This document shows positions 27,651 to 45,598 of a stretch of DNA of 64,000 nt, one piece after another. The first letter of the stretch is position 1. The number at the start of each line of letters is the position of its first letter. The position numbers and the translations under genes are program-made. Below the pieces are notes generated by a model. That model was not told where the DNA came from. It saw only the letters and a program-made list of their open reading frames with translations, and searched no databases. The stretch is from an uncultured delta proteobacterium. Its GTDB lineage: Bacteria; Myxococcota_A; Polyangia; Polyangiales; Polyangiaceae. The stretch lies in contig CAVQUB010000005.1 of assembly GCA_963716725.1 (NCBI GenBank), forward strand, positions 288,001 through 352,000, written 5' to 3'.

Positions 27651-30600
27651 TCAGAGCTCCTTCAGCAGAGCGACGAGCGCCCGGAGTTCCTCGCCGTCGG
27701 TCACCTCTCGGAGCGAGCGGTTCACCTCCGACAGCGCGTGCGCGGCGAGCACGCACGACGCGCCGCGGTCGCCAGCTCTGGAGAGCAGGGCCGCAGCGTT
27801 GGGCTGCGTGGGGCAGAGCATGAGACGTTTCGATTTCGTGTCGTAGCGCAGCGCTCGCTTGGAGCGCTTCACGAACAGCTCTTCGACGGGCGCGCCGGTG
27901 AGGTGCAGGTTCGTGACCAAGTCGAGTAGCGCACGGTGCTCGGCCCTGGTGGCCTCGACGGGCTCGTCGCCCAATGAGGTCGCTCTCAGCGCTGCCGTCA
28001 CCCGGCCCCACCACGAACCGTCGGCCGGCGCGTCGCCGGCGTTGGGCGGTACCAGCACCGGTGTGGGCGGTGGCAGCGCGGTGCTCTCCAGTGACAGGCC
28101 CGGCGCGCGCAGCCCCGCAAAGTGCCGGATCGCCCCCACCGGCGCGCGCAGCGCGAGCACGCGGGCCAGCGCCGAGCCTTCGGTCACGAAAAACTTGGGC
28201 AGCGCGCCCGGGAAGGAGCCGTCGGCGAATCCTCGCCCATCACTCGTCCACACCGTGCCGGTCGTCTGGAGCTCGCTGACCACGGCGGCCAGGTCGAGGG
28301 GCGTTCCGTCGGCCGCCACGACGAGAGGCGGTGACGAATCGAGCCCGAGCAGCGCGAGCGAGAATCGCGTGCTCGTCCACAGCAGGCGCGTTCGAGCCCT
28401 TCGCGCGCAGCTCCCGCAGCAGCTCGACGGCGACCTGCTCTCCCAGGGCGTTCAGGGCGTTCCAGGTGTAGGTCAGCGTGGCGAGCGTGGCGAGTGTCGA
28501 GCCGAGTTCGGCCGCGATGGCCTCGCTCCCTCCATCCGGCTCACCGACCCAGCGCACCAGCAGATCACCCTCGAGCGGGAGCGCCGTGCCGATGGCGCTC
28601 TTCTCGATCCGCGCCTCGAGACTGCGGACGATGGGTGCCGCCTGCTGCCCTGCGTACACCCGCACCCGGGGAGTTGCCGGAAAACCAGCTCCGAGCCAGA
28701 GCGCTCCAGTCACGCGAAAGCCTCGGATCTGAACCTCGTCGAGCCAACGGGACGCCAGAGCCTGCCCTGGCGCGAACACCCGCTGCAGCTCGGACCGAGC
28801 GCAGAGACGCGCTCGCTGCGAGAGCACGGGCAAGAGGGCGCGAAGGGCAGGCGCTTCGAAGTAGCGGTCGGGTTCGACGCTGTCGTCGTTCAACATCATC
28901 ACGAGCGGCCAGCCGTCTCCGGAGTCGAGGGGCGAGAGCGGTCGACGCATGACGTGCAGCGTTCCGCCCGCGAGTTCGGCCTGCGCTGGCAAGAGCACGC
29001 CCACCTCACCGGTGGTGCCCTCGACGTTGACCGGCGCCGTGACCAGGCAGGCCGCTCGCTGTTCGGTCGAGAGCAGCACGGTCGGGACCTGTGGCGCCGT
29101 CCGGCGCCGCTCGGCGTCGCGCATTCGCTCGATCTGAGCGTCGACGTTGACCAAGTCGAAGCTCGAAGCGAGCGCTTCGGCCTCGTTGAGCGTCAGCCGC
29201 AGCGTGAGGCCGTTCATCGGCGGGAAGGGGGGGGCCAGGCTGGTGAACTGCCAACGGTTCTCGGTCGCAAGGGCGGCAAGGCTGTGAAAGGTGCCAGCAG
29301 TGCCTTCGAACACCGGCGCTGCGGTCAGGCTCGCCTCTTCCCGCATGGACTCGCCCAGGCAGAGAACACGGCGCGCGGCACGTCGCACGAATGCGGGGAG
29401 CTGGTCGAACTCTCGGGCCGAGCTCACCACTATCTTCACGGCGGCGTCGTCGAGCTCCGAAACCAAGCGCTCTTTGACCCCCGCGACGTCGATGGCGTCG
29501 ACGCGGGCCACGGCTCTAAACGCGCACAGTGTCACGGGCATGAGGGTTTCGACGCGCCCGTCCAGCAGCAGCACGCTGACGCTGGCGTCCGCGCCCGCGA
29601 TGAGCTCGACCTCGCCGTCGCCCGAGCCGACGCCGAGCTCCCACAGCGCCTTGCGCAGCGCCGGATGGGCCGGCGCGCCAGCGAGCTTCGGCGCAGCGAC
29701 GGAGCTGCCCCCGCGTCGCTGCTGCAAGGCATCGAGCGCCGCGCTGACGTCGTCGAGGGTCGCCCCGAATCGGCCGAACAGCGCCGAGATCTGCGCGCCC
29801 GCGTCGCCGGCGGGCAGAAATAGGATGGGCCGGTCAAGCTCGGACGCGCGAGCGTCTTGCGACCGCCAACTGGGGTAGCGTCCCGTCCCGCACAGCATCC
29901 GTCCTTCGCGCAGGCTGAGTTGGCTCCAAGGAGCTTCGTCGCCTTGCACGGTAGGAAAGCGGAAGCTTTCACTAGCAAAGAGCTTTCGCAGCTGCTCGAC
30001 GGATCCAAAATCACAGAGCGCGAGGCAGAGCGCCAGCGCGCGCGGATCCGAGAGCAGCTGTCGCTGTTCCGCCAGGACATGGAGCAGCGCGATGCTCGCG
30101 GTCTGCAGTCGCGCGCCGATGCGCCCGAGACCTTCGCGGGTCGGCGCGCCGAAGTCGACGAAGTCGTCCGGCAGGTGAGAACTCAGATTGGCAACGATGG
30201 GCAGGCCCACTTCGCGCGCGAGGAGGCCGTGGACTGATCGGCCATCGAAACGCAAATCCACCCAAGCCGTAGCCAGAGAGAGCTCCCCGGGAGGCAGGGC
30301 CAGCGCGACTTCGAGATCGTTGGGTGAGTTCGCGTTGCGGGCTGCGGGTAGGTGAGCGACGACATCGCGTGCGCCGATACGCGCGCCGAAGTCCCGGATG
30401 TCCACCGCGGGCCGCGCGAGGACGGCCTGTTGGTCCAGCTCGAGCTTGGCCCGCGCACGCCGAGCCTTCAGCTCGGTCGCGGCGGCCGTTGCCCGTGGAA
30501 AGCGCCGGAGCAGAAGCTCGCGCTCGCGCTCGTGCCGGACGAGCACCGGAGCCCAGTCGCCGGTCGAAAAGCCGGGAGCGGCGTCGAGGAGCGGCAGCTT

Positions 30601-33274
30601 CTCCCCGTGCCTCGAGGCGGCCTCGGCGACGGATGTCTGGGACGGTGATCCGGAGGCGTCGAGGCTTTGCAAGATCGGGAGCGCCTCGATCCGGGCCAAC
30701 ATCGCCGACAGCTTTGGGTCGGGTGCTTTGTTCTCCGCTGCCCGAGACAAACGCAACCGCAGTGAGATGGCGTGGCCCAAGAGACAGAGAGAGAGCCCCA
30801 GGTCGTCGACGGGCTGCCCGAGGCCCATCCCCAGGGCTCGCCGCGATTCATCGTCGCCCTCGAGGGCCGCGACGGCCTTCTCGACGAAGCGCTGTTCGAC
30901 CCAGCCGCGGTAGCGCCTGCCCTTCCAGTGAGGCGCGGTCCAGTCCGCATTGGGAACGGTTCGTGGATCGTCCGTCGCCACGATCAGCGCGCAGAGCGCC
31001 TTCTCGCGAGTTTCGCGCAGGAGCACCACGCTCACGTGGCTCTCGATGTCGACCGCGACGATAGCGGGTGCGACCAGGACGATGGCGCCGTCGCGTTCCA
31101 GCCAGAGCTGCGCGGACCGTGGGGCGAGGCCTTGCTCCGCGCGCACCTCGCCGACGCTGCGAGCCAGGGCCACGCGACCGGATTCCTCCGCGGCTCCAAG
31201 GGCGTTCTCCGAGGACACTGCGCGCTGATAGGGGATGCGCGTCACCCGGTCCGGCAGCGCGGCGGCGATGGCCTCGGCTTCGAGGGCGGCGGCAACGAGC
31301 ACCGGACGCCCATCGGGTGCCGGCCGCGGAGGACCGCCTGGCGGACCGGGCACGACACACAGCGCCTTCTTCTCGCGGGCGTAGCTGGCGAGCGTCTGCA
31401 AGCTGACCCGACCGCCAGCCGTCGTGGCCAAGGCCTCTGCGCCGAACAACTGCGCATGGTCGCGGCTAAACTCGGTCGGGTCGGGCGCGAGCAGACCGAG
31501 GCGAGCAGGGACGACGCTCCAGGCGATGATCGCGTCTCGCAACACGCGTTCCAGTGCGCTCTGTTCGCGGCCCGAGAGCAGCGTCAGGCGCGCCGCTGCG
31601 CGATCGGCGATGCCGACGGCCAGCATGCTCACCGCGTGAAGCGTCTGGTTCAGGTGAGCGTCTCGCTCCACGCCGTCGTAGTCGAAGCGAGGCCTCAGTC
31701 CCGAAGGCCAGGCCACCGCCGCGTCGAAGGAAAGCGGGCACAAATCGGGCTCGACGACCACTGCCTCGAGCATGCGTCCTTCGACGAAGACCCTGAGCAG
31801 CGAGGGACCTGGCACGCCGAGGGGAGTCAGCAACACCAATTCGCCGGTCAGCCCCGCGGTGGGACCCGTGGTGAGCGAGAATCGCTCGCGCGCGAGCTCG
31901 CGGGGCGACGACGGTACCGTCGGAGCAGAGGCTGCATGAGCCAAGAAGCGGGCGCGGCGCGCGGCGCCCGCTCGGGCGCGCTTCAACAGCGTCGAAGCGT
32001 CCTCGAGATTCGAGCCCTGCAGGACCCGCTCGACGACGCGTCCTCGAAGCCACACGACCTGCGCGAGCCAGGGGGCGAGCTCGTGCGGGGGCGGCTCACT
32101 CTTCTTCCAAACTCGAACCAAGGGGCTCGAGACCACCGCTGCCACCGAAATGCGCCCGCCGCCTGCCGTGTCGAGCAGCGGCAGGTCGAGCAGCGCGCGG
32201 ACTTCGGGGTCTGGTTCACCACCCGCCCGGAGAGTTTCGACGCAGCTGCACAAAGCAGCGCCCAGGGCGTCGAGCCACGCCCGCGGATCGTCCAGCAGAA
32301 CTTCGACCCCGTCGGGGTGAGGCGCGCCGGAGGCGCGGGCCACGAGCGCCGCGAGCGCCTTGCGAAATGCGCTCTCGGCGGCTGGCCAGAGTTCACGGGC
32401 CAGCGGTGTGTCTTCGCGCAGCGCGGAGCGCGAAGCGTTGGTCGGGAGCTCGTCCACGTCGACCACGACTCGAGCGGACACTGCCGTGTCAGAGGTCGGT
32501 GAGAGGCCGTTCAAGGGCACCCAATCGAGGGACAGCAGGAGCACGCCGCGCTCCATCAACTCGACGCGAGCCGGTCCCCCTGCCGCGCCAATCTCGACGG
32601 CAGCACGGCGGGCGCCGGGCAGGGTGAATGGAACTCGCAGGAGCGTCGGCAAGGGGAGCGGACGCACCACCGCAACGCCTGCGCAGAAGAGCGCGAGGGG
32701 CGCCTCCCGAGTGTTCTCGAATCAGCAGCCTGACCTCTGGCGGAACGTCCCTCGACACCACGCTCCGCAACACTCCCAGTCCAAGCTTTCGCCGAACGTG
32801 GATCTGGGTGCCCTGGGCGAAGGCCCCGTCCGGGATGGAGCACGAGACCGCGCGGAGCGGCGGGGACGACTCGCTCTCGTCGGCGATGGCCTCCGATGTG
32901 AAGCGGACCGCGATGCCGGCTGATCCGTGGGTCGAGGTCACCGCGACGAAGCTCACGCCCAGGCCCAGCGCGGCGTTCACGCCCAGAGCCAGACAGCGCA
33001 GCGGCGCCGCGTGCTCGTCTTCGGCGTCGCTCAGTGCGAAGTCGAGCAAGCAGGCCAGGCGTTCTGCCGAGAGACTTGGTCCGTCGAAGGCGAAGCGAAT
33101 GTCGTCTGCGTCCCAGGTCAGGTTCATCGCGGTCGCCCCCAGCGCCACCGCGGCTCGAGCGAGCTCGAGGGGATAGGTCCGGAGATCGACCAACAGGTGT
33201 TCACGCAGCTTCGCGCGGGCGCGCCGAGCATCGACGCGGATCGAACCCCGGAGCACGATCTTGCGTTCGCTCAC
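27651..33274 (-). CDS. Giant (~1870 aa) protein: degenerate GHKL/Hsp90-like N-domain plus repeated Hsp90-middle-like modules; two apparent +1 frameshifts (~32720, ~28363)
   Basis: GTG start overlaps the upstream stop; removing one base at each site joins three ORF segments (LLIENTREAPLALF; HAISLALLGLDSSPPLVV); VVVDVDELPTNASRSALRED resembles HtpG GVVDSEDLPLNVSRE. Confidence 0.6.
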
Positions 33275-34968
33275 GATCCGCCCTCGGCGTAGTCCCTCAG
33301 CAACGCGTCGTTGACTCCAGACCCGAGCGGGCCGCGACGTTCGAGCAGCAGCATGCGAGCCAGCAGCTGTGCCGCGGCGCGAGGGTGCCGTCGCGCGCCC
33401 TCGCACGCGGCCCAGACTCCCGCGGAGCGACCGTCGAGCAGCAGCACCGCGCCCTCGCCCCAGCGCGACGCAGCGTGCGCCGCAGCCTCGAGGGAGACGA
33501 TGCCCCGAATCGGCGCCCGAGCGAGCACCAGGTGGTGGGGGAGAGCGCCCTGGACGCGTGCGAAGGTGACGCGCTCGACCTTCGTACCGGCCACGGCGAT
33601 GCAGCGCTGCACCTCGGCCACGAGCGCCAAACCCAGGCCCGAGACCTCGCCGGGCAGCGCCTCTTCGACCAGGTAGTGACGCTCGTAAGCGGCCTCGACG
33701 CCGCCTTTGGGGTGGAGCTCTGCGACTCGGTGCACGACGTCCGCGTGGGGACAGAGCACCACGGGTCGTCCTTGGGCTGCAAAGGCGTCGGTGAGCTGGC
33801 TCTGCTCCGTCGACGTGAGGATCGGCGCGCGCCGCGGGGTCCGTTTCGCGACGTCCGCGTGTGTCATCGCGCATTGCCCTTTGACCGCGCTCGCCAGCGG
33901 AAGCCAGACGCGATCGGCGCCGAGGCGGCACGGCTCGTGCGCAGCCGCGACCAAGAGCGCCAGGTAGTGAGCAAACGCGCCACCCGTGGCTACTTCTTGG
34001 GCCGCGACGCGCAGCGCTTCGGCCACGGCGGCCGGGAGCGCACGCCGCGCGAGCGCGCCTGCTCGAGCCAGCAAGTCGTCGAAGGCCGCTTCGCGCCGGA
34101 CGTTGTCGCGAGACAGGGTGTGTTTCAGTGCCGAACTCGAGATTTTTACGCGCAAACCCGCCAGGCCGGGGAACGCCTCGCTACTCGTCTCGTAGAGCGT
34201 GAGCCCCCGATTATAGAAGCCGACGAAGGCAGTCGCATTTTCGTAAGGCAGATCGTGAGGCGGCAAGTGCTCCGCGCCGATCCCGGCACCGAGCACGATG
34301 CTGCCTTCGCCGTCGACGTCCGTGACGCTCACCGCTGCGTGAACTTGGAGCGGTCGATCGAGCCTTTCGCGGGATGAGCCTCGCGGGTTGGCGTAGTCGG
34401 TCACCGAGAGCCAGATCGGCACTCGAGCGTGCCGGCACCAGCGCAGGAGGCTGTCCCTGACGAGCGCCGCGTGTGTGTCGAAGTCGCTCGATTCCATCGC
34501 GTGCGTCAGCGTCACGCTCGATCCCGAGAGCGGACGGGGCGGGATCTCCTCGACCACGTAGGAGTGGTCGGGCTTGATCGTCGCGCGCCACGCTCCGCCG
34601 TCGCGCCAAGTGTCGACGATCACGGTCTCGGGCGAGAGGGCCAAGACCGAGACAAAGCCGACGCCGTACTTGCCGATCTTGGTCGAGTCGCCCTCTTTGG
34701 ACGACGAGAACAGCGTCAGGAGCGCGCTCTCGATGATCTGCGGCGTCATGCCGACGCCGCTGTCCGTCACTCGGGTCCGCGTCTCACCGCTGGCCTCTCG
34801 GATGACGTCCACCTCGACGCTTGTGGTGCCCGCGTCCATGCTGTTTTGCACCAGCTCGCGCAAGAACGCGTAGGGGTCCGCAAACTGACGGACCATGTCG
34901 GAGACCAGCCCAGGCTTCCCGGGCTCCGGCGACGTGGTCCGGTCTTTCCCGGCGCGGTACGGGCTCAC
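33271..34968 (-). CDS. Hsp90/HtpG-like GHKL ATPase
   Basis: Bergerat motifs FLRELVQNSMDA, DSGVGMT, SSK, IGKYGVGFVS, GSSVTL; middle-domain-like LKHTLSRDNVRRE. Confidence 0.85.
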   Translation of the reverse strand: MSPYRAGKDRTTSPEPGKPGLVSDMVRQFADPYAFLRELVQNSMDAGTTSVEVDVIREASGETRTRVTDSGVGMTPQIIESALLTLFSSSKEGDSTKIGKYGVGFVSVLALSPETVIVDTWRDGGAWRATIKPDHSYVVEEIPPRPLSGSSVTLTHAMESSDFDTHAALVRDSLLRWCRHARVPIWLSVTDYANPRGSSRERLDRPLQVHAAVSVTDVDGEGSIVLGAGIGAEHLPPHDLPYENATAFVGFYNRGLTLYETSSEAFPGLAGLRVKISSSALKHTLSRDNVRREAAFDDLLARAGALARRALPAAVAEALRVAAQEVATGGAFAHYLALLVAAAHEPCRLGADRVWLPLASAVKGQCAMTHADVAKRTPRRAPILTSTEQSQLTDAFAAQGRPVVLCPHADVVHRVAELHPKGGVEAAYERHYLVEEALPGEVSGLGLALVAEVQRCIAVAGTKVERVTFARVQGALPHHLVLARAPIRGIVSLEAAAHAASRWGEGAVLLLDGRSAGVWAACEGARRHPRAAAQLLARMLLLERRGPLGSGVNDALLRDYAEGGS

Positions 34969-35133
34969 CTGGCCTTGTTAGGGTCGTTTCTGCCCAGATG
35001 GAATGGTCAGGTTCACCTGAGGCACGGCGATCTGTAAGCTCCCGCCCGCGGCGGGCGTTCTCGATGGCACCGCCAATTCTTCGAATCCTTTTTGTCTCTG
35101 ATGCGTCTCTTCGGTCGCATCACCAGGGAAACC

Positions 35134-36612
35134 ATGAACCACGGAACATATGTGCCGGCGTGGCGCGCGGTCGCGATCGCGGCGGCCCTCGCGCTCCCGG
35201 CCTGCGGCGGTAAACCCCCCGAATTGGCCAAGTCAGGCGAGTTCGCCGGGCCATCGAAGGCGGCTTCATCGAGCGCGAAACAGCGCGAGAAGGTGGCGAT
35301 CACGGTCTACAACCAGAACTTCGGCCTGGTGCGGGAGATCCGGAAGCTCGAGCTCGGCGAAGGCAAGGTGAGCCTCGAGTACCGAGACGTGTCCGCTCAC
35401 ATCCAACCCGAGACGGTGCACATCAAATCGCTCAGCGGGGACGACGCGCTGACGGTGATGGAGCAGAACTATCGCTACGATCTGCTCAACCCCCAGAAGC
35501 TGCTCGAGAAGTACGTCGACAAGAAGATCAAGGTCTACCGTTACAACGAGAAGCTCGGCCGCGAGGAGATGAAGGAGGCCAAGGTGCTGGCGGTGGAGCA
35601 AGGCACGGTGCTCGAGATCGACGGCGAGGTGACCTACGACGTCCCGGGTCGCTTCGCGTTCCCCGAGGTGCCAGCGAATCTCATCGCGAAGCCGTCGCTG
35701 GTCTGGCTCTTGGGCAGCCGGAAGACCCAGCAACGGGTCGAGGTCAGCTACCTGACCCAGAACCTGAACTGGGTGGCGGACTACGTGATGGTGGTCGGCG
35801 ACGACGACAAGGTCGGCGATCTGAATGGCTGGGTGACGCTGACCAACCAGAGCGGCACCGACTACGAGGACGCGCAGCTGAAGCTGGTGGCCGGCGACGT
35901 GCAGCGCGTGCAGCCGGAATCGACTCCCACCATGGACTACGCCGCTCAGGCAGAGGCTCCCGCGGCCCCGCGCGAGCAGTTCAAGGAAGAGGGCTTCTTC
36001 GAGTACCACCTGTACACGCTGGAGCGTTCGACCACGCTGCTCGACAAGGAGCAGAAGCAGGTGACCCTGCTCGAGGCCCACGACATCGGCATCAAGAAGA
36101 AGCTGATCTTCTGGGGCGCGAGCCACTACTACCGGGGCAACTACGGTCAGGTCGTGTCCAACCAGAAGGTCGGCGTGTACCTGGACATCAAGAACAGCAA
36201 GGACAACCGCCTGGGCATGGCCCTGCCGAAGGGCACGGTCCGGGTCTACAAGGCCGACAAGAGCGGGGCCAAGCAGTTCATCGGTGAAGATCGCATCGAC
36301 CACACGCCGCGGGACGAAGAGATCCGGATCAAGATGGGCGAGGCCTTCGACGTGGTCGGGGACCGGAAGCAGATGGAGTGGAACGCCATCGGCAGCTGTG
36401 TGTCCGAGAGTTCGTGGGAGATCGAGCTCCGCAACCACAAAGACGTGGCGGAGCGCGTGGAGGTCTTCGAACCCATCGGTGGCGATTGGTCGATGCTGCA
36501 GTCGAGCCATAAACACACCAAGAAAGACGCAAACACCTTCACCTTCGACGTCGAGGTGCCGTCGCGGGGCAAGACCAAGGTCACTTATCGGGTTCGGGTG
36601 AGGTGGTGCTGA
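35134..36612 (+). CDS. DUF4139-like lipoprotein, type A copy 1
   Basis: Lipobox LPAC; ITVYNQNFGLVRE, EQNYRYDLL, YLT..LNW.ADY, FEYHLYTL, LG..LPKG.VRVY, IDHTP motifs; ends VRWC. Confidence 0.85.
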   Translation: MNHGTYVPAWRAVAIAAALALPACGGKPPELAKSGEFAGPSKAASSSAKQREKVAITVYNQNFGLVREIRKLELGEGKVSLEYRDVSAHIQPETVHIKSLSGDDALTVMEQNYRYDLLNPQKLLEKYVDKKIKVYRYNEKLGREEMKEAKVLAVEQGTVLEIDGEVTYDVPGRFAFPEVPANLIAKPSLVWLLGSRKTQQRVEVSYLTQNLNWVADYVMVVGDDDKVGDLNGWVTLTNQSGTDYEDAQLKLVAGDVQRVQPESTPTMDYAAQAEAPAAPREQFKEEGFFEYHLYTLERSTTLLDKEQKQVTLLEAHDIGIKKKLIFWGASHYYRGNYGQVVSNQKVGVYLDIKNSKDNRLGMALPKGTVRVYKADKSGAKQFIGEDRIDHTPRDEEIRIKMGEAFDVVGDRKQMEWNAIGSCVSESSWEIELRNHKDVAERVEVFEPIGGDWSMLQSSHKHTKKDANTFTFDVEVPSRGKTKVTYRVRVRWC

Positions 36613-36614
36613 GC

Positions 36615-38033
36615 ATGAAGCGAGTCGCGTGGGTTCTGGTGCTGGCGGCGGCGGCGCCCAGCGCACTGGCGGCGCCGAAGAAGGTGTCCGGCGGCGAGCA
36701 GCGCCAAGAGGTGAGCATCACGGTCTACAACCAGAACTTCGGTCTGGTGCGCGAGGTGCGCGAGATCGAGGTGGGTACCGGCACCGTGGATCTCGAGTTC
36801 CGGGACGTGGCGGCGCAGATCCAACCGCAGACGGTGTCGATCAAGTCGCTGTCGGGCGCGAACTCGCTGTCGGTGCTCGAACAGAACTACCGCTACGATC
36901 TGCTCACGCCGCAGAAGCTCCTGGAGAAGCACGTCGGCAAGAAGGTGCGGGTCTGGCGCTGGAACGAGAAGCTCGGCAAAGACCAGCCCTTCGACGCCGA
37001 GGTCCTGAGCGTGGCTGGGGGCCAGACGGTGATGAAGATCGGCGGCGAGGTCACCTACAATTTCCCCGGGCGCATTGCCTTCCAGAGCGTGCCGGAGAAC
37101 CTGATGAGCAAGCCCACCCTGGTGTGGAAGCTCGAGAGCAAGCTGGCCAAGCAGAAGGTGGAGGCGACCTACCTGACCCAGAGCCTGAACTGGCGCAGCG
37201 ACTACGTGTTCGTGATCAACGACGCCGACAGCGCCGGGGATCTGACCGGCTGGGTCACGCTGATCAACAATTCGGGAGCCTCCTACAAGAACGCAAGGCT
37301 GAAGCTGGTCGCGGGCGACGTGCAGCGCGTGTCCGACGGAGACGACCACCGTCGACCCATGGGTGGCGCCGGGCGCATGTCCGCCAATCGCGAACGGCAG
37401 TTCTCCGAAGAGAGCTTCTTCGAGTACCACCTGTACACGCTGAGCCAACCGACGGACGTGCTCGAGAACGAGCAGAAGCAGGTCACGCTGCTCGAGGCCA
37501 AGGGCGCCAAGGTGCAGAAGAAGCTGATCTACTTCGGGCAGCAGTACTGGTACCGCAGCAAGTACGGCGAGGTGCAGAAGAACCAGAAGGTCGGCGTGTA
37601 CCTGGATCTGCAGAACAGCAAAGACAACGGCCTGGGCATGCCCCTGCCCAAGGGCATGGTGCGGGTCTACAAGGCCGACAAGAGCGGCGCCAAGCAGTTC
37701 ATCGGCGAAGACCAGATCGACCACACGCCGCGCGACGAGAAGGTGCGCATCAAGATGGGCGAGGCCTTCGACGTGGTGGGCGACCGCAAGCAGATGGAAT
37801 GGCGCACGCTCGGCAGGTGCACGTCGGAGAGCAGCTGGGAGATCGAGCTCCGGAACCACAAAGACAAGGCCAGCCGGGTCGAGGTCTTCGAGCCCATCGG
37901 CGGCGACTGGACCATGGTCGAGAGCACGCACAAACACGACAAGAAGGACGCGCACACTTTCACTTTCGACGTGAACGTGCCGGCCAACGGCAAGACCAAG
38001 ATCAAATACAAGGTGAGGGTGAAGTGGTGCTGA
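36615..38033 (+). CDS. DUF4139-like secreted protein, type B copy 1
   Basis: Cleavable signal peptide (SALA), same scaffold motifs; 1419 nt. Confidence 0.85.
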   Translation: MKRVAWVLVLAAAAPSALAAPKKVSGGEQRQEVSITVYNQNFGLVREVREIEVGTGTVDLEFRDVAAQIQPQTVSIKSLSGANSLSVLEQNYRYDLLTPQKLLEKHVGKKVRVWRWNEKLGKDQPFDAEVLSVAGGQTVMKIGGEVTYNFPGRIAFQSVPENLMSKPTLVWKLESKLAKQKVEATYLTQSLNWRSDYVFVINDADSAGDLTGWVTLINNSGASYKNARLKLVAGDVQRVSDGDDHRRPMGGAGRMSANRERQFSEESFFEYHLYTLSQPTDVLENEQKQVTLLEAKGAKVQKKLIYFGQQYWYRSKYGEVQKNQKVGVYLDLQNSKDNGLGMPLPKGMVRVYKADKSGAKQFIGEDQIDHTPRDEKVRIKMGEAFDVVGDRKQMEWRTLGRCTSESSWEIELRNHKDKASRVEVFEPIGGDWTMVESTHKHDKKDAHTFTFDVNVPANGKTKIKYKVRVKWC

Positions 38034-38035
38034 GC

Positions 38036-39454
38036 ATGAGGCGAGTCGCGTGGGTGTTGGTGCTGGCGGCGGGGGCGCCGAGCGCGCTGGCGGCACCGAA
38101 GAAGGTGTCCGGCGGCGAGCAGCGCCAAGAGGTGAGCATCACGGTCTACAACCAGAACTTCGGCCTGGTGCGCGAGGTGCGCGAGATCGAGGTGGGCACC
38201 GGCACGGTGGACCTCGAGTTCAGGGACGTGGCGGCGCAGATCCAGCCGCAGACGGTGTCGATCAAGTCGCTGTCCGGGGCGAACGCGCTGTCGGTGCTCG
38301 AGCAGAACTACCGCTACGATCTGCTCACGCCGCAGAAGCTCCTGGAGAAGCACGTCGGCAAGAAGGTGCGGGTCTGGCGCTACAACGAGAAGCTTGGCAA
38401 GGACGAGCCCTTCGACGCGGAGATCCTGAGCGTGGCCGATGGCCAGCCCGTGATGAAGATAAACGGCGAAGTCACCTACAACTTTCCCGGCCGCATCGCG
38501 TTTCCGAGCGTGCCCGAAAACCTGATGAGCAAGCCCACCCTGGTGTGGAAGCTCGACAGCAAGCTGGCCAAGCAGAAGGTCGAGGCGACCTACCTGACCC
38601 AGAGCCTGAACTGGCGCAGCGACTACGTGTTCGTGATCAATGACGCCGACAGCGCCGGGGATCTGACCGGCTGGGTCACGCTGGTGAACAACTCGGGGGC
38701 CTCGTACAAGAACGCCCGCCTCAAGCTGGTCGCCGGCGACGTGCAGCGCGTGAGCCCCCGCGACGAAATGGACGACGAGCGCAGCTACAAGAAGTCAGCC
38801 GAGTCCAGCGGTGCCCGTCGCTTCGCCGAAGAGAGCTTCTTCGAGTACCACCTGTACACGCTGAGCCAACCCACCGACGTGCTCGAGAACGAGCAGAAGC
38901 AGGTGACGCTGCTGGAAGCCAAGAACGCCAAGGTGCAGAAGAAGCTGATCTACTTCGGGCAGCAGTACTGGTACCGCGGCCGGCATGGCGAGGTGCAGAA
39001 GAACCAGAAGGTCGGCGTGTACCTGGACGTCCAGAATACCAAGGCCAACGGCCTGGGCATCCCGCTGCCCAAGGGCACGGTGCGAGTCTACAAAGCCGAC
39101 AAGAGCGGGGCCAAGCAGTTCATCGGCGAGGACAACATCGACCACACGCCGCGGGACGAGAAGGTGCGCATCAAGATGGGCGAGGCCTTCGACGTGGTCG
39201 GCGACAGGAAGCAGATGGAGTGGCGCACGCTCGGCACCTGCAGCTCGGAGAGCACCTGGGAGATCGAGCTCCGGAACCACAAGGACCAAGCCAGTCGGGT
39301 CGAGATCTTCGAGCCCATCGGCGGTGACTGGACCATGGTGGAGAGCACGCACAAACACGACAAGAAGGACGCGCACACCTTCACCTTCGACGTGAACGTG
39401 CCGGCCAACGGCAAGACCAAGATCAAGTACAAGGTGAGGGTGAAGTGGTGCTGA
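38036..39454 (+). CDS. DUF4139-like secreted protein, type B copy 2
   Basis: Near-identical to B1 outside the variable cassette; 1419 nt. Confidence 0.85.
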   Translation: MRRVAWVLVLAAGAPSALAAPKKVSGGEQRQEVSITVYNQNFGLVREVREIEVGTGTVDLEFRDVAAQIQPQTVSIKSLSGANALSVLEQNYRYDLLTPQKLLEKHVGKKVRVWRYNEKLGKDEPFDAEILSVADGQPVMKINGEVTYNFPGRIAFPSVPENLMSKPTLVWKLDSKLAKQKVEATYLTQSLNWRSDYVFVINDADSAGDLTGWVTLVNNSGASYKNARLKLVAGDVQRVSPRDEMDDERSYKKSAESSGARRFAEESFFEYHLYTLSQPTDVLENEQKQVTLLEAKNAKVQKKLIYFGQQYWYRGRHGEVQKNQKVGVYLDVQNTKANGLGIPLPKGTVRVYKADKSGAKQFIGEDNIDHTPRDEKVRIKMGEAFDVVGDRKQMEWRTLGTCSSESTWEIELRNHKDQASRVEIFEPIGGDWTMVESTHKHDKKDAHTFTFDVNVPANGKTKIKYKVRVKWC

Positions 39455-39459
39455 ATCGA

Positions 39460-40912
39460 ATGTCGAAGACCTTGGCCTTGGCCTCGCTCCTGGCGGCTAC
39501 GGCCTGCGGAGGCAAAGCGCCAGAGCTGGCCAAGGGCGGCGAGTTTGCGGGGGCTTCGAAGGCGGCGACGTCGAGCGCGAAGCAACGCGAGAAGGTGGCG
39601 ATCACTGTCTACAACCAAAACTTCGGTCTGGTACGCGAGATCCGAAAGCTCGAGCTCGGCGAAGGCAAGGTGAGCCTCGAGTACCGAGACGTGTCCGCGC
39701 ACATCCAACCCGAGACCGTGCACATCAAGTCGCTGGATGGCGACGATGTCTTGACGGTGATGGAGCAGAATTACCGCTACGACTTGCTCAGCCCGCAGAA
39801 GCTGCTCGAGAAGTACGTGGACAAGAAGATCAAGGTCTACCGCTACAACGAGAAGCTCGGCCGCGAGGAGATGAAAGAGGCCAAGGTGCTGGCCGTGGAG
39901 CAGGGCACGGTGCTCGAGATCGACGGCGAGGTGACCTACGGAGTCCCGGGTCGCCTCGCGTTCCCCGAGGTGCCCGCGAATCTCATCGCGAAACCGTCGC
40001 TGGTGTGGCTACTCGGTAGCCGCAAGGCCCAGCAGCGCGTCGAGATCAGCTACCTGACGCAGAACCTGAACTGGGTGGCGGACTACGTGATGGTGGTCGG
40101 CGACGACGACAAGGTCGGCGATCTGACCGGCTGGGTGACGCTGACCAACCAGAGCGGCACCGACTACGAGCAGGCGCAGCTGAAGCTGGTGGCCGGTGAC
40201 GTGCAGCGCGTTCAGCCGACCGACGTGACGACGACCCTCAGCCGCGGTCGAGGCGGCAAGTCGCGGGCCAAGGACCAGTTCAAGGAAGAAGGCTTCTTCG
40301 AGTACCACCTGTACACGCTAGAGCGCCCGACCACGCTGCTCGACAAGGAGAAGAAGCAGGTGAGCCTGCTCGAGGCTCACGGCATTGGCGTGAACAAGAA
40401 GCTGATCTTCTGGGGCGCGAACTACTACTACCGCGGCAACTACGGCCAGGTCGTGGCCAACCAGAAGGTCGGCGTCTACCTCGACATCAAGAACACCAAG
40501 CGCAACCGCCTGGGCATGGCGCTGCCGAAGGGCACCGTCCGGGTCTACAAGGCGGACAAGAGCGGAGCCAAGCAGTTCATCGGTGAGGACAACATCGACC
40601 ACACACCGCGAGACGAAGAAGATCCGCATCAAGATGGGCGAGGCCTTCGACGTGGTGGGCGACCGCAAGCAGATGGAGTGGAACGCGCTGGGCAGCTGCG
40701 TGTCCGAGAGCTCGTGGGAGATCGAGCTCCGCAACCACAAGGACGTGGCCGAGCGCGTGGAGGTCTTCGAGCCCATCGGTGGGGACTGGGAAATCGTCCA
40801 GTCGAGCCACAAGCACACCAAGAAAGACGCGCACACCTTCACCTTCGATGTCGAGGTGCCGTCGCGGGGCAAGACCAAGGTCACCTACCGGGTGCGGGTG
40901 AAGTGGTGTTGA
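39460..40912 (+). CDS. DUF4139-like lipoprotein, type A copy 2 (apparent +1 frameshift at ~40616-40620)
   Basis: Lipobox ATAC; near-identical to A1; an extra A in GACGAAGAAGATC relative to A1 GACGAAGAGATC. Confidence 0.82.
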
Positions 40913-40914
40913 GC

Positions 40915-42334
40915 ATGAAGCGGGTCGCGTGCGTGTTGGCGCTGGCCGCGGCGGCGCCGAGCGCGCTGGCGGCGCCGAAGAAGGTGTCCGGGGCCGACCA
41001 GCGTCAGGAGGTGAGCATCACGGTCTACAACCAGAACTTCGGTCTGGTGCGGGAGGTGCGCGAGATCGAGGTGGGCACCGGCACGGTGGACCTCGAGTTC
41101 AGAGACGTCGCGGCGCAGATCCAGCCGCAGACGGTGTCGATCAAGTCGCTGTCGGGCGCGAACTCGCTCTCGGTGCTCGAGCAGAACTACCGCTACGATC
41201 TGCTCACGCCGCAGAAGCTGCTTGGAGAAGCACGTCGGCAAGAAGGTGCGGGTCTGGCGCTGGAACGAGAAGCTCGGCAAGGACGAGCCCTTCGACGCCG
41301 AGGTCCTGAGCGTGGCCGGGGGCCAGACGGTGATGAAGATCGGCGGCGAGGTCACCTACGACTTCCCCGGGCGCATCGCCTTCCCGAGCGTGCCCGAGAA
41401 CCTGATGAGCAAGCCCACCCTGGTGTGGAAGCTCGACAGCAAGCTGGCCAAGCAGAAGGTCGAGGCGACCTACCTGACCCAGAACCTGAACTGGCGCAGC
41501 GACTACGTGTTCGTGATCAACGACGCCGACAGCGCCGGAGATCTCACCGGCTGGGTCACGCTGGTCAACAACTCGGGCGCCTCGTACAAGAACGCCCGGC
41601 TGAAGCTGGTCGCCGGCGACGTGCAGCGAGTGAGCGCCGGCAGCGGCGAGGACTCCGACCTGGGCATGCTCCAATCGGCGCAGCCGACCACCGGCGCGCG
41701 CTTCCAAGAAGAGGGCTTCTTCGAGTACCACCTGTACACGCTGGGCCAGCCCACGGACGTGCTCGAGAACGAGCAGAAGCAGGTGACGCTGCTCGAGGCC
41801 AAGAACGCCAAGGTGCAGAAGAAGCTGATCTACTTCGGGCAGCAGTACTGGTACCGCGGCCGGTACGGCGAGGTGCAGAAGAACCAGAAGGTCGGCGTGT
41901 ACCTCGACGTCCAGAACACGAAGGCCAACGGCCTGGGCATCCCGCTGCCCAAGGGCATCGTGCGGGTCTACAAGGCCGACAAGAGCGGCGCCAAGCAGTT
42001 CATCGGCGAGGACAACATCGACCACACGCCGCGGGACGAGAAGGTGCGCATCAAGATGGGCGAGGCCTTCGACGTGGTGGGCGATCGCAAGCAGATGGAA
42101 TGGCGCACGCTCGGCGCTTGCACCTCGGAGAGCACCTGGGAGATCGAGCTCCGAAACCACAAGGACCAGGCCAGCCGGGTCGAGATCTACGAGCCCATCG
42201 GCGGCGACTGGACCATGGTCGAGAGCACGCACAAACACGACAAGAAGGACGCGCACACCTTCACCTTCGAGGTGAACGTGCCGGCCAACGGCAAGACCAA
42301 GATCAAATACAAGGTCCGCGTGAAGTGGTGCTAG
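40915..42334 (+). CDS. DUF4139-like secreted protein, type B copy 3 (apparent +1 frameshift at ~41222)
   Basis: 1420 nt versus 1419 nt for B1/B2; extra T in CTGCTTGGAG. Confidence 0.82.
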
Positions 42335-42482: not shown

Positions 42483-43184
42483 CATACTCCAGGATGCTGA
42501 CCTGCAACCGCATCGGCAAAAAATGTACCTGACTTCGCACGACGACGAGTTCAGGGGGAAGCGCGACGACGTGCTGCGCGTCTACTACGAGACGCCAAAG
42601 AAGGAGCAATCGTGTGCGTCGACGAGAAGACCGGCATCCCGGCGCTCGAACGCCGCTACGCTGACATTCCGATGGTGGCCGGACAGCCCGTCCGCCGCGA
42701 ATTCGAGTACGTCCGCCATGGCACGCTCTGCTGGATGGGAGCGCTCGATGTTCGCCGCGGCAAGCCGTTCGGCTTCATCTCGGACGGGCACGACAGCGAC
42801 ACCTTCGTCGAGCTACTCGACGTCATCGAGGCGGTCTACCCGCCGGGTCGTGGCCACATCATCATGGACGATCTCTCCGCCCACGACACGCCCGACGTGA
42901 ACGAGTGGTTTGACGAGCACCCACGCTGGATGCGCCACTTCACGCCGAAGCACGCGTCGTGGCTCAACCAGATCGAGTGCTGGTTCTCGATCCTCACGCG
43001 CCAACTTCTCGCACGAGGCTCGTTCACGCCAACCGACGACCTCGCGGCGAAGATCGACGCGTACGTCGCGTGGTATCTGCAGACCGACCGACCCTTTCGC
43101 TGGTCGTACCGCCCCAAGTCGTGGGCCGAATCCCGAAAAACCCCCTCACTTTCGGCGAAGAAAGCCGCAACTGTTTCGGAGTGA
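42483..43184 (+). mobile_element. IS630-family transposase remnant (5'-truncated, frameshifted at ~42610)
   Basis: LQPHR..., VCVDEKTGIPAL, EYVRHGT, HIIMDDLSAH, HFTPKHASWLNQIECWFS (DDE motifs). Confidence 0.85.
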
Positions 43185-43205
43185 GGCCCGACCACACGGG
43201 GATGG

Positions 43206-43616
43206 CACAGGAAGGGCGAAAGCTTGGAAGATTTGGGGATGGGACGGACGAGGTGATCGGTGCGCTGATCGAGGTGCATCGGCATCTCGGTCCAGGGCTG
43301 ATGGAATCCGCATATGAGGCCTGTCTATCTGCCGAGCTGTCGGAAAACGACGGCTCAAGTTCGAGCGGCAGCGACCGCTACCAATCCGCTACAAAGGCGT
43401 ACACCTTGACTGCGCCTATCGCCTCGACCTGGTCGCTTTCAGATCGTATCCTCCTGGAGCTCAAGGCGGTCGAGCGGCTGCTCCCGATTCACGAAGCGCA
43501 GGTCATCACCTATCCGCGCCTTTCGCGGTTGCCCGTCGGCCTGCTCGTCAACTTCAGGCCTGCGGACGCTAACGCCTGACCACCCCAAATCCTTCTGCTC
43601 TTCCGCCCTTCCTGTG
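43206..43616 (+). pseudogene. GxxExxY (PD-(D/E)XK-like) protein remnant flanked by imperfect inverted repeats
   Basis: IGALIEVHRHLGPGLMESAYE, ELKAVERLLPIHEAQVITY..L...VGLLVNF; internal frameshifts; IRs at 43206-43238 and 43583-43616. Confidence 0.8.
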
Positions 43617-43675: not shown

Positions 43676-45598
43676 CTAGGGCAGCGTCGTGATCGCGACG
43701 TTGGCGGCCGCGCTCCCGCCGATGGCGGCGGGAGTGGTCCACGTGCTGTTGATGAGCCGTGAGTGATAGGCCACGCCATCGGACTCGATGAAGGCGACTT
43801 CGACGGCAGCGGTCGCCGCGCCTCTGGTGATCGCAGGCGACGACGTGCTGTTCACGTTCGGTGACGAGATGCCCGCCGGGCTCGACCAGGAGCTGCCCGA
43901 GAAGAACGAGGTGTAGAGCTTGCCGTCGGTGCCCTTGAACGCCAGCGCCGCGCCGCCGCCGGGCAGCGCCGCGAGCGAAGGTCGCGCGCCCGTGATCGCG
44001 CCGGTGATGGCGGCCGGCGTCGTCCAAACACCGCTTGTTCGAGTGGTGAAGAGCAGGTTGCCGGACTGGATTTCGGCGAAGACCACCAGAAGCTCTGGCC
44101 CGGTGCTCAGCGCAACGACCGCCGGGACGATGTAGTAGTCCACCGCGCCGCTGATGAACTGCGGGGACTGCCAGACCGCGCTCACGCGGTCGTCGGAGGA
44201 CAAGGCTCCATCCTGTTCACCGCTCGCATAGACGGCCACGGGCGTGGAGCCGATCACGGTCAGATCTGCGCCGCTAAAGCCGTACTGGTGGTTGCCGCTC
44301 GGCCCGATCGCCTCGGGAGCCGAGAACGTGCCCGCGAACGACATGAAGTAGTGCTTGTCGTCCGTGCCATGGAACGCGAGATGAACGGCCGTCGGGCCAA
44401 CCGCGAGCGCGGGACGGGATTGCGTCGTGATGCCAGTCCCGACGTTGGCGAGTTGGGTCCACCCGCTCGGGGTCCAGGCCGAGTACTGCAGGGCTTGGTC
44501 GTTGACGTGGTTGATCTCGGTGAAACGAACCGCCGCGGCCGCGCCCGCGCCGCCCACCGAGACTAGCGAGACTCCATCGACGGACTTGCTCCCGAGCGAG
44601 CTCGTCGACCAGCTGCCGCCGACGACCAGATCCGCGCCCAGCACCGCGGTCGCGCTGCCGACCACCGCGAGCACGGTGGGACACAGCGGGCAGGTGCCGC
44701 CGCAGTCGACTCCGGTCTCAGCACCGTTTTTCACGCCGTCGGAGCAGGTCGGGGCGTTGCAGGTGTGAGCCGTCGTGTTGCACACCAGCGACGCGCACTG
44801 GCTGCTCGAATTGCACTCGACGCACACGCCGGCGCCGGTGCAGAACTTGCCGCCGTTCTGGGTGCAGGTGCTGTTGATGGTCTTGTTCGGATTCGACGGC
44901 GTGCCGTTGGAGCACAGGTCGTCCGTGCACTGATTGCCATCGACGACGGGGTCGGCGTCGTCGTTCTGGCTGCTGACCGTGCCCGCCCCGTCGCACATGA
45001 CCTTCTTGCAGTCGCTCGGGACCTGCTGTGGTGCAGGGCCTGCTGTGACGAAGGACATCCCGCAGGCGCCCGTGCTGCAGGTGCGGGTCTGGCACGCGTT
45101 ATCCTGGCCCGGACACTCGGACGCTGTGGTGCATCCGCCGGTGCCGCCGGTGCCTCCGGTCGCAGAGCCGCCGGTTCCCGCGGCGCCGCCGGTGCTGCCA
45201 CCGCTGCCCGCCGCGCCGCCGGTGCTGCCGCCGGTTCCCGCGGCGCCGCCGGTGCTGCCACCGCTGCCCGCCGCGCCGCCAGTGCTGCCACCGGTTCCCG
45301 CGGCGCCGCCGGTGCTACCGCCGCTGCCGGCCATGCCACCGCTGCCGGCAACGCCACCGGTTCCACCGCTGCCGCCTGAGCCCCCGCTGGTGGTTCCACC
45401 GCTGCCGCCCGCGCCACCGGTTCCACCGCTGCCGCCTGAGCCCCCGCTGGTGGTTCCACCGCTGCCGCCCACCGATGACCCGGTACCGCCGGTCGAGTCA
45501 TCGATCTCGTCCCGCTCCGGCTTCGTGATCAGCGAGCACCCAATGAGCGGCATGCCGACGGCACCCACGAACCCAATCCGAACCAGCAACGAGCGCAT
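43676..45598 (-). CDS. Surface lipoprotein: Gly/Ser/Thr stalk, Cys-rich repeats, C-terminal beta-propeller (lectin-like)
   Basis: Lipobox LIGC; GGSTGGAAG repeats; PTCSDGVKNGAETGVDCGG; repeated W...P.L blades. Confidence 0.75.
   Translation of the reverse strand: MRSLLVRIGFVGAVGMPLIGCSLITKPERDEIDDSTGGTGSSVGGSGGTTSGGSGGSGGTGGAGGSGGTTSGGSGGSGGTGGVAGSGGMAGSGGSTGGAAGTGGSTGGAAGSGGSTGGAAGTGGSTGGAAGSGGSTGGAAGTGGSATGGTGGTGGCTTASECPGQDNACQTRTCSTGACGMSFVTAGPAPQQVPSDCKKVMCDGAGTVSSQNDDADPVVDGNQCTDDLCSNGTPSNPNKTINSTCTQNGGKFCTGAGVCVECNSSSQCASLVCNTTAHTCNAPTCSDGVKNGAETGVDCGGTCPLCPTVLAVVGSATAVLGADLVVGGSWSTSSLGSKSVDGVSLVSVGGAGAAAAVRFTEINHVNDQALQYSAWTPSGWTQLANVGTGITTQSRPALAVGPTAVHLAFHGTDDKHYFMSFAGTFSAPEAIGPSGNHQYGFSGADLTVIGSTPVAVYASGEQDGALSSDDRVSAVWQSPQFISGAVDYYIVPAVVALSTGPELLVVFAEIQSGNLLFTTRTSGVWTTPAAITGAITGARPSLAALPGGGAALAFKGTDGKLYTSFFSGSSWSSPAGISSPNVNSTSSPAITRGAATAAVEVAFIESDGVAYHSRLINSTWTTPAAIGGSAAANVAITTLP
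45171..45470 (-). repeat. Imperfect 30/60-bp tandem repeats encoding the Gly-rich stalk
   Basis: Visible 60-bp periodicity (ccggttcccgcggcgccgccggtgctgccaccgctgcccg...). Confidence 0.85.

Follow-up and report, generated by a model that had tools for sequence, protein, structure and literature searches.

Results

A tandem array of five DUF4139 genes

The window analysed here is a stretch of 64,000 nucleotides (nt) of contig CAVQUB010000005.1 from an uncultured member of the Polyangiaceae, which is represented by a metagenome-assembled genome of 7.9 Mb that is 84% complete. It carries five genes for DUF4139 proteins, which follow each other head to tail on the plus strand in the order A1-B1-B2-A2-B3 between positions 35134 and 42334 (Table 1). 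A preliminary description, made from the letters of this DNA, had reported five tandem paralogues that consist of a conserved scaffold and, in each copy, an unrelated cassette of 22-23 residues. The five paralogues were confirmed, and all five cassette intervals translate exactly into the peptides that had been listed; the frameshifts in A2 and B3 had been overlooked. The stop codon of A1 and the start codon of B1 are separated by 2 nt, and a search of the window's own genome with B1 matched these five units only. Throughout, W denotes the copies in the window, G000 the window's own genome, G001-G006 and G010 other genomes, and P0001-P0006 homologous proteins from elsewhere.

The claim that the proteins are exported held: the A types have a lipoprotein signal with a lipobox cysteine (Cys24 in A1, Cys16 in A2), and the B types have a cleavable signal peptide with an Ala-x-Ala motif. 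All copies end in Trp-Cys and contain one further conserved cysteine. At three gene borders (36590-36617, 38011-38038 and 40890-40917), the codons for the terminal Val-Lys/Arg-Trp-Cys hold a Shine-Dalgarno-like GAGGTGG or AAGTGG in front of the next ATG, and thus the conserved protein end may double as the ribosome-binding site of the next gene.

Table 1. Positions of the array genes, their cassettes and the upstream promoter-like motif in the window
Feature	Positions	Strand	Description
A1	35134-36612	+	Intact DUF4139 lipoprotein, 492 amino acids, lipobox Cys24; Cys at 24, 422 and 492
B1	36615-38033	+	Intact DUF4139 protein, 472 amino acids, signal peptide
B2	38036-39454	+	Intact DUF4139 protein, 472 amino acids
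A2	39460-40912	+	DUF4139 lipoprotein gene, one-base insertion at ~40619-40621 as assembled
B3	40915-42334	+	DUF4139 gene, one-base insertion at ~41222-41223 as assembled
A1 cassette	35911-35979	+	Residues 260-282, predicted disordered loop; translation checked
B1 cassette	37332-37400	+	Residues 240-262, predicted disordered loop; translation checked
B2 cassette	38753-38821	+	Translation checked
A2 cassette	40213-40278	+	22 amino acids; translation checked
B3 cassette	41633-41701	+	Translation checked
ECF-type promoter-like motif TGTAAG-N17-CGTT	35033-35059	+	75 nt before the A1 start codon; once in the window; motif match only

A variable cassette in a conserved body

Bodies of the same type differ by 0.025-0.037 nonsynonymous (dN) and 0.19-0.35 synonymous (dS) substitutions per site, which corresponds to a dN/dS ratio (omega) of ~0.13. 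The DNA identity of the five cassettes, at 0.49-0.65, compares with a shuffle null of 0.52 +/- 0.04. When differences were counted per 10 codons along the aligned genes in 16 pairs, the cassette was the only saturated island, which bears out the description of a conserved scaffold with unrelated cassettes.

A segment of the same kind is found throughout the closest homologues. The conserved flanks were matched in 112 of the 120 best homologues, all 112 of which have 20-25 residues between the flanks, and the segment comprises 19-26 residues in 119 of 124 aligned sequences, down to an identity of 35%. It forms the highest-entropy blocks of the 124-sequence alignment and consists of 20% Ala, 10% Pro, 9% Arg, 8% Glu, 7% Gly and 7% (7.3%) Met. 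Judging from these alignments, the whole subfamily has this variable loop, and the cassette is not a peculiarity of the array. By appearance, the loops of homologues that are encoded behind sigma/anti-sigma factor pairs (L079, L080, L088, L135 and L136) resemble a short amphipathic segment rich in Met, Ala and Lys, and the A1- and B2-type loops of the window retain traces of this pattern.

Different histories of bodies and loops

An alignment of 25 copies from eight genomes yielded 300 cassette pairs, of which 36 are within a genome. The congeners have arrays of 4-5 units in the corresponding position, flanked by the same genes as in the window, with the order A-B-A-B in G002, A-B-B plus a separate A-B in G003 and, in G004, A-B-B preceded by a B fragment. 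The 14 highest cassette identities of all 300 pairs are between genomes, and the identity of the 36 within-genome pairs is at most 0.36. For G002_A1/G003b_A and G002_A2/G003a_A, identities of 0.65 and 0.54 were found, each of which was reached by none of 3000 shuffles, and the latter two loops have a run of 10 identical residues in common. The loop type of A1 is common to W_A1, G002_A1 (0.52) and G003b_A (0.48), values that beat 2998 and 2997 of 3000 shuffles, respectively, and it is recognisable across genera (G006_A, 0.48; G010_1, 0.44). Similarly, the loop type of B2 is common to W_B2, G002_B1 and G003b_B2.

The bodies group differently. In an IQ-TREE tree calculated without the cassette, copies of the same type group by genome, with seven genome-specific groupings at supports from 97/98 to 100/100, and approximately unbiased (AU) tests rejected each of the four loop-type groupings (p = 1.3e-4, 2.4e-4, 2.2e-6 and 6e-49). 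At four-fold degenerate sites, paralogues within W and within G002 differ by 0.10-0.25, and copies from different species with the same loop type differ by 0.30-0.42. The clustering of the bodies by genome together with the rejection of the loop-type groups points to gene conversion in which the loop is spared. The two flanks do not always have the same history: in G002, A1 and A2 differ at four-fold sites by 0.19 to the left of the loop and by 0.05 to its right, and B1 and B2 differ by 0.047 and 0.169, respectively. Among 143 sequences, pairs whose bodies are at least 95% identical fall into two classes, one with loop identities of 0.7 or more and one with loop identities of 0.35 or less. As far as can be read from these comparisons, the bodies are in concerted evolution by gene conversion from which the loop is left out, and the loop lineages predate the species.

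Rate and constraint of the loop

Near-identical orthologues keep the loop, with 22 of 23 identical residues for B1/P0001 and 21 of 23 each for B2/P0002 and B3/P0004; P0006 also has the B3 loop (21 of 23). For the loop, four pooled orthologue pairs give 0.33 nonsynonymous (pN) and 0.52 synonymous (pS) differences per site and an omega of 0.49, compared to 0.09-0.15 for the bodies, and in orthologue pairs the loop evolves 3-10 times faster than the body. The block of 10 identical residues in G002_A2 and G003a_A contains four synonymous differences and no others. An omega of 0.49 and the retention of the loops characterise a loop that is relaxed but not free, and in these sequence comparisons there is no sign of positive selection or hypermutation. 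The preliminary description had regarded the cassette as free in sequence, which would imply turnover, a view that is not upheld, given the retention in orthologues, the sharing of loop types between species and the value of omega; relatives that keep the same loop with drift, which it had itself named as the observation that would speak against its interpretation, are largely what was found among the near-identical orthologues and related arrays compared.

The sharply bounded, unrelated segment in near-identical genes looks like the product of active diversification, in which a diversity-generating retroelement or silent donor cassettes would rewrite the cassettes, but this look is the only point in favour of such a mechanism. 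In the 7.9 Mb assembly, every cassette is present as a single copy and matches only itself, the next best matches being at most 21 nt long (E >= 0.006), so that the assembly contains neither a template repeat nor a donor. The near-identical orthologues keep 21-23 of the 23 loop residues, and the differences between loops are not confined to one class of bases. No reverse transcriptase was found among the 12 flanking open reading frames (ORFs) scanned, and no dedicated search for reverse transcriptases was run. Active diversification is thus close to refuted, and the involvement of any diversity-generating mechanism is very improbable.

It could also be envisaged that the loop is a pure spacer, i.e., a neutral linker of which only the length matters, that the diversity among paralogues is functionless, and that gene conversion stops mechanically at the heterology. 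The fast evolution of the loop in orthologue pairs is in accord with this view, and so are the low-complexity composition, which is rich in Ala, Pro, Arg, Glu and Gly, and the differing conversion histories of the left and right flanks in G002, which fit tracts that end at the heterology. However, an omega of ~0.5 instead of 1 and a conserved block of 10 residues with only synonymous changes are not expected of a neutral linker, and the recognition of the A1-type loop across genera as well as the weak recurring pattern and the 7.3% Met of the loops family-wide also argue against it. In our estimation, a mere spacer is rather improbable.

Predicted structure

The A1 and B1 proteins were modelled with AlphaFold2 using subfamily alignments. 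The B1 model has a mean predicted local distance difference test (pLDDT) score of 93.4 and a predicted template modelling (pTM) score of 0.84, and pLDDT values below 50 are confined to residues 1-3 and 243-258; the respective scores for A1 are 89.0 and 0.78, and here residues 1-3 and 264-280 alone fall below a pLDDT of 50. With the exception of the N-terminal three residues, the low-confidence stretches thus fall inside the cassettes. The models are all-beta, with two short helices each and the additional helix of the signal peptide in A1, and the cassette would connect two strands of the N-terminal beta domain. The preliminary view of the cassette as an exposed and disordered loop of constrained length on a fixed body is therefore in agreement with the predictions for both proteins. 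Three prediction runs for a heteromer of A1 (residues 50-492) and B1 (residues 25-472) scored 0.01, 0.31 and 0.34 in relation to a mark of 0.32, and the controls scored 0.00.

Searches with Foldseek and VIA-align 2 (wide search and second look) revealed no convincing solved fold relative. The best Foldseek matches were the ribophorin I/Ost1 subunits of oligosaccharyltransferase (6s7o_E, E = 1.4e-6, probability 0.99), with a template modelling (TM) score of only 0.13-0.17. With VIA-align 2, residues 22-294 align to the N-terminal domains of M1 aminopeptidases (Z = 7.0-7.9, ~150 residues, root-mean-square deviation ~5), Ost1/ribophorin I reached Z = 6.8-7.2, and C-terminal beta-sandwich or carbohydrate-binding-module-like domains reached Z <= 7.9; all of these Z values are below 8 and thus, by the rating of the tool, represent a common arrangement. 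A sequence profile search of the PDB gave no match at E = 1, and the ESM Atlas contained only DUF4139-like or unnamed clusters.

The bait regions of alpha-2-macroglobulin (A2M) and the reactive loops of serpins had been invoked as models for the cassette, and the resemblance does not extend to homology. None of the six protein pieces has a Pfam match to an A2M family, the thioester motif CxEQ is absent from all five copies, and the mature protein has only two cysteines. No Pfam match to serpins was obtained, and the models are all-beta. The Foldseek match to E. coli A2M (4rtd) is weak (E = 0.011, probability 0.11, TM 0.05-0.11), and A2M is absent among the 50 VIA-align 2 matches listed.

Family membership

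The Pfam model DUF4139 (PF13598) has a gathering cut-off of 31.8 bits, and A1 (36.6 bits), B1 (35.3), B2 (39.9) and the C-terminal piece of B3 (38.3) score just above it; the N-terminal piece of A2 remains below it (19.9) because the frameshift cuts it. DUF4140 (PF13600, cut-off 27 bits) is the N-terminal domain that is usually paired with DUF4139. Its only match here is the N-terminal piece of B3, with 17.4 bits, and A1, B1 and B2 have none at E = 0.01. An NCBIfam scan of A1 and B1 resulted in no family at E = 0.01, including the model of the 'mucoidy inhibitor MuiA family'. Membership in the curated MuiA family is therefore not established, and of the preliminary assignment as DUF4139/MuiA-type proteins only the first half stands. 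MuiA itself is presumably a DUF4139 protein.

More distant DUF4139 genes are present elsewhere in the same genome, at G000:C12:277296-278294 and at five further places (L047, L052-L056); one of these distant genes scores 128 bits with the Pfam model, far above the genes of the array. A search with B1 matched at least 8000 proteins, and the B1 query yielded 7182 clusters at 50% identity (E up to 0.001), so that DUF4139 is a very large family. Judged by their titles and abstracts, the papers matched by a full-text literature search for DUF4139 are on other subjects, and none is about the family.

Association with ECF sigma factors

The genomic context was analysed for 80 related loci from many phyla, together with 81 upstream regions for motif counts. 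Gemmatimonadota, Nitrospirota, Rokubacteria and Acidobacteriota also have close homologues of the array genes. Most of these are single genes, and they often follow genes for an extracytoplasmic function (ECF) sigma factor and its anti-sigma factor, a distribution that lends no support to the earlier idea of an innate-immunity-like system of a predatory bacterium. The subfamily gene is single within reach in 73 of the 80 loci, paired in six and triple in one, and five of the six pairs consist of an A gene followed by a B gene and belong to Polyangiaceae-like genomes. The commonest neighbour is a gene for an ECF sigma factor (16 of 80 loci, 14 upstream on the same strand), followed by one for a zf-HC2 anti-sigma factor (17 of 80 loci, 16 directly upstream on the same strand).

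Of the 81 regions in front of a DUF4139 gene, 44 contain an ECF-type motif, compared to 0-1 on the other strand. The motif GGAAC-N15-18-GTCY occurs upstream of both the sigma factor genes and the DUF4139 genes, for the latter in 16 of the 81 regions (none on the other strand, shuffle mean 0.73). In Polyangiaceae, Gemmatimonadota and Acidobacteriota it is replaced by TGYAAS-N15-18-CGTY, which is found in 28 of the 81 regions (one on the opposite strand, shuffle mean 0.53, maximum 3). ECF-type promoters were defined by an AAC- or AAG-type -35 element, a CGT-type -10 element and a spacing of ~16-17, and the promoter-like motif in front of A1 (Table 1) conforms to this definition; G002, G003a, G003b and G006 carry the TGYAAS motif at the matching place.

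Between this motif and the A1 start, an element of 27 nt (35083-35109) is conserved in G002, G003a and G003b and could be a 5' leader element. As a handle for a regulon it was discarded: the exact pattern has no second match in the genome, and a relaxed pattern gave four matches versus two in a reversed control, so that no regulon is claimed.

In Pseudomonas aeruginosa, according to a review, the ECF sigma factor SbrI promotes transcription of muiA (PMC10418997). The MuiA and SbrI/SbrR system and the array are alike in that an exported protein with no assigned biochemistry is encoded by a gene driven by an ECF sigma factor, here by context and motif, and in that homologues of the array genes lie directly behind genes for an ECF sigma and a zf-HC2 anti-sigma factor in 16 of the 80 loci and have ECF-type motifs; they differ in that the array has no adjacent sigma or anti-sigma gene and contains five copies of two types. 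A further parallel is offered by RseB and MucB, which are periplasmic partners of anti-sigma factors. This parallel is restricted to a functional analogy: these proteins are likewise soluble or lipid-anchored in the periplasm and encoded with or controlled by an ECF pair, and they are not related to the array proteins in sequence or fold.

Assembly support and frameshifts

As the source is assembled from a metagenome, the units are repetitive and two of them contain one-base frameshifts, the array might be an artefact in which dispersed paralogues were collapsed or chained. This was addressed with contigs from three DNA runs of three studies and one RNA-library run (X20), which is from the same study as X9. 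Contigs of the other runs span all five cassettes plus flanks: X1 contigs cover the cassettes of B1 (37233-37434) and B2 (38654-38855) with no differences, X1 and X5 contigs span that of A2, and an X5 contig spans that of B3 (41599-41788). Three of the four junctions are bridged, i.e., A1/B1 (X5 record 20), B1/B2 (X1 record 3) and A2/B3 (X9 record 31), and B2/A2 is the one junction that has no bridging contig among those compared. The coverage of every cassette and the bridged junctions in independent runs make a gross mis-assembly, which the preliminary description had considered, unlikely, and the corresponding arrays of the congeners, with their shared flanking genes, also argue against it. 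Taken together, a false array is exceedingly improbable.

In the assembled sequence, A2 has an extra base in GACGAAGAAGATC (~40619-40621) and B3 has an extra T at ~41222-41223. In this form, the extra base splits both A2 and B3 over two frames, which leaves A1, B1 and B2 as the three intact genes. One base at 40621 is missing from near-identical contigs of X5 and X9, and A2 is therefore intact in those populations. The frameshift site of B3 is not settled by the contigs compared; intact proteins of 472 and 466 amino acids with a B3-type loop occur in other metagenomes (P0004 and P0006). Contigs of the wastewater metatranscriptome X20 lie on A1/B1 at 36156-36306, 37215-37365 and 37625-37935, with 1, 0 and 9 differences, respectively; since carry-over of DNA is possible, they are no proof of transcription.

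Neighbouring genes

Directly 3' of the array (42612-43579), a fragment of an IS630-type DDE_3 transposase (42612-43184) and a PDDEXK_3 gene are located. In tblastn searches, neither protein was matched in any congener locus, and in G002, the Gly/Cys-rich gene that is described next follows within ~800 nt of the last B copy; the DDE_3/PDDEXK_3 segment looks like an insertion specific to the window's genome. Further downstream, on the minus strand (43676-45598), a gene encodes an exported protein of 640 amino acids with long Gly-Ser/Gly-Thr repeats, a Cys-rich middle and no Pfam match, and G001, G002 and G005 likewise have this Gly-rich gene on the downstream side of their arrays. On the other side, two genes on the minus strand are divergent from the array (28240-34968), one for an HSP90/sacsin-like HATPase_c_3 protein of 565 amino acids and one for a protein of 1476 amino acids without a Pfam match; both are kept beside the array in G002, G003 and G006. 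A second DUF4139 array in G006 (G006:C13:198752-201578; L022, L043) has in-frame TGA and TAG codons (up to five per match) and overlapping pieces in different frames, and it is probably a decayed pseudogene array.

Discussion

We favour, with a probability of about 60%, the explanation that the gene for an exported, predicted all-beta DUF4139 protein, as a target of ECF regulation, has undergone a genus-specific expansion in tandem, with old loops and homogenised bodies. The ancestral unit in Polyangiaceae would have been a pair of a lipoprotein A followed by a soluble B protein. The cassette would be a universal surface loop of ~19-26 residues, intrinsically disordered and constrained in length but only weakly in sequence. 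In a first step, paralogues and loop lineages would have arisen before the species of the genus; in a second, the loop would have evolved several-fold faster than the body, with a dN/dS of ~0.5, up to saturation between paralogues; and in a third step, which would still continue, gene conversion would homogenise both flanks in each genome without carrying the loop over. Context and motifs suggest that transcription of the array genes depends on an ECF (envelope-stress) sigma factor. To a putative periplasmic partner, the disordered loop probably presents either a flexible contact or a substrate-like segment, and we infer that the extra copies would offer different versions of this loop.

Several points weigh against this explanation and should be considered together. 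In the assembled sequence, frameshifts interrupt two of the five genes. The loop-type groups that were rejected by the AU tests were named after the alignment and a first tree had been seen, the omega of the loop is based on four pairs of ~23 codons, and sparing of the loop by selection and blocking of the conversion tract by 69 unlike bases are two alternatives that are not distinguished. With respect to regulation, the TGYAAS pattern was defined from the sequences in which it was counted, so that its enrichment is inflated; the strand asymmetry and the recurrence across phyla are better arguments for this motif than its count. No sigma or anti-sigma factor is encoded by the 12 flanking ORFs scanned (25669-52887), i.e., the genes are not adjacent to such a module, and a tblastn search for a homologue of the anti-sigma factor in the 84%-complete genome found none at E = 1e-4; the best sigma homologue in this genome is 44% identical and is encoded ~280 kb away (C5:42967-43587). 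Lastly, a partner, ligand or activity is not known for any member of the family, and the functional part is an inference.

Mosaics generated by gene conversion are a general phenomenon in bacterial multigene families. The array resembles other cases in which the concerted evolution of tandem paralogues spares a variable segment, in that the bodies group by genome and the segment across genomes, and in that the conversion histories on the two sides of the segment can differ. Here, however, the spared segment is a 69-nt region for a predicted disordered loop in a periplasmic family with no assigned function, and not part of a surface antigen with donor cassettes; no donors were found.

The preliminary description had proposed a panel of protease baits, and this possibility deserves to be discussed against the background of the data presented here. 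Each loop would be cleavable by a different periplasmic or foreign protease, and the cut would either alter the protein or titrate the protease, perhaps with a feedback on the proteolytic activation of an ECF anti-sigma factor. In the models, the loop is exposed, disordered and constrained in length within a rigid body, as would be expected of a bait. It is not free to drift (omega 0.49, and a block of 10 residues with four synonymous changes), no within-genome pair has a homogenised loop despite the homogenised flanks, and the subfamily is tied to ECF sigma/anti-sigma pairs, a class that is switched by regulated proteolysis of the anti-sigma factor. In its design, as far as the models go, the array protein is akin to the bait region of A2M and the reactive-centre loop of serpins, i.e., an exposed, flexible and variable loop of constrained length on a conserved body; in fold and family it is unrelated to both, being an all-beta protein of ~450 amino acids that is known from sequence and models.

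However, no protease gene is conserved beside the family and none was found among the 12 cluster representatives scanned, a thioester motif, an A2M or serpin domain and a convincing fold match are lacking, and the chemistries of the loops would also be expected from drift in a loop under low constraint. A variant in which the loop mimics the cognate anti-sigma factor was tried and rejected, because the loops are no closer to cognate than to non-cognate anti-sigma factors (local score 27.6 versus 26.5 +/- 4.6, with scattered ranks; 8 of 14 loci). On balance, we regard a bait or decoy panel as unlikely. By analogy, one may speculate further that ECF stress systems of many phyla induce a DUF4139 bait as a feedback element which occupies or reports the protease, and that the genus has a panel of such baits in which selection keeps the loops different and the bodies are homogenised; this scenario is doubtful. 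If it were true, one scaffold would serve several protease specificities, and the array would be a bacterial analogue of the macroglobulin bait on an unrelated fold.

Returning to the expansion with old loops and homogenised bodies, a loop with an omega of ~0.5 on a rigid beta body would be conserved enough to be functional, and bodies that are homogenised while the loops remain separate are the pattern expected if the loop carries specificity. An omega below 1, blocks that are conserved within loop types and the fact that none of the genomes has homogenised loops may leave room for such a specificity-carrying loop. The link to ECF sigma/anti-sigma factors and their promoters, which extends across phyla, places this DUF4139 subfamily in envelope-stress signalling. 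If the loop is a site of interaction or cleavage, the array would supply five ready-made variants of it.

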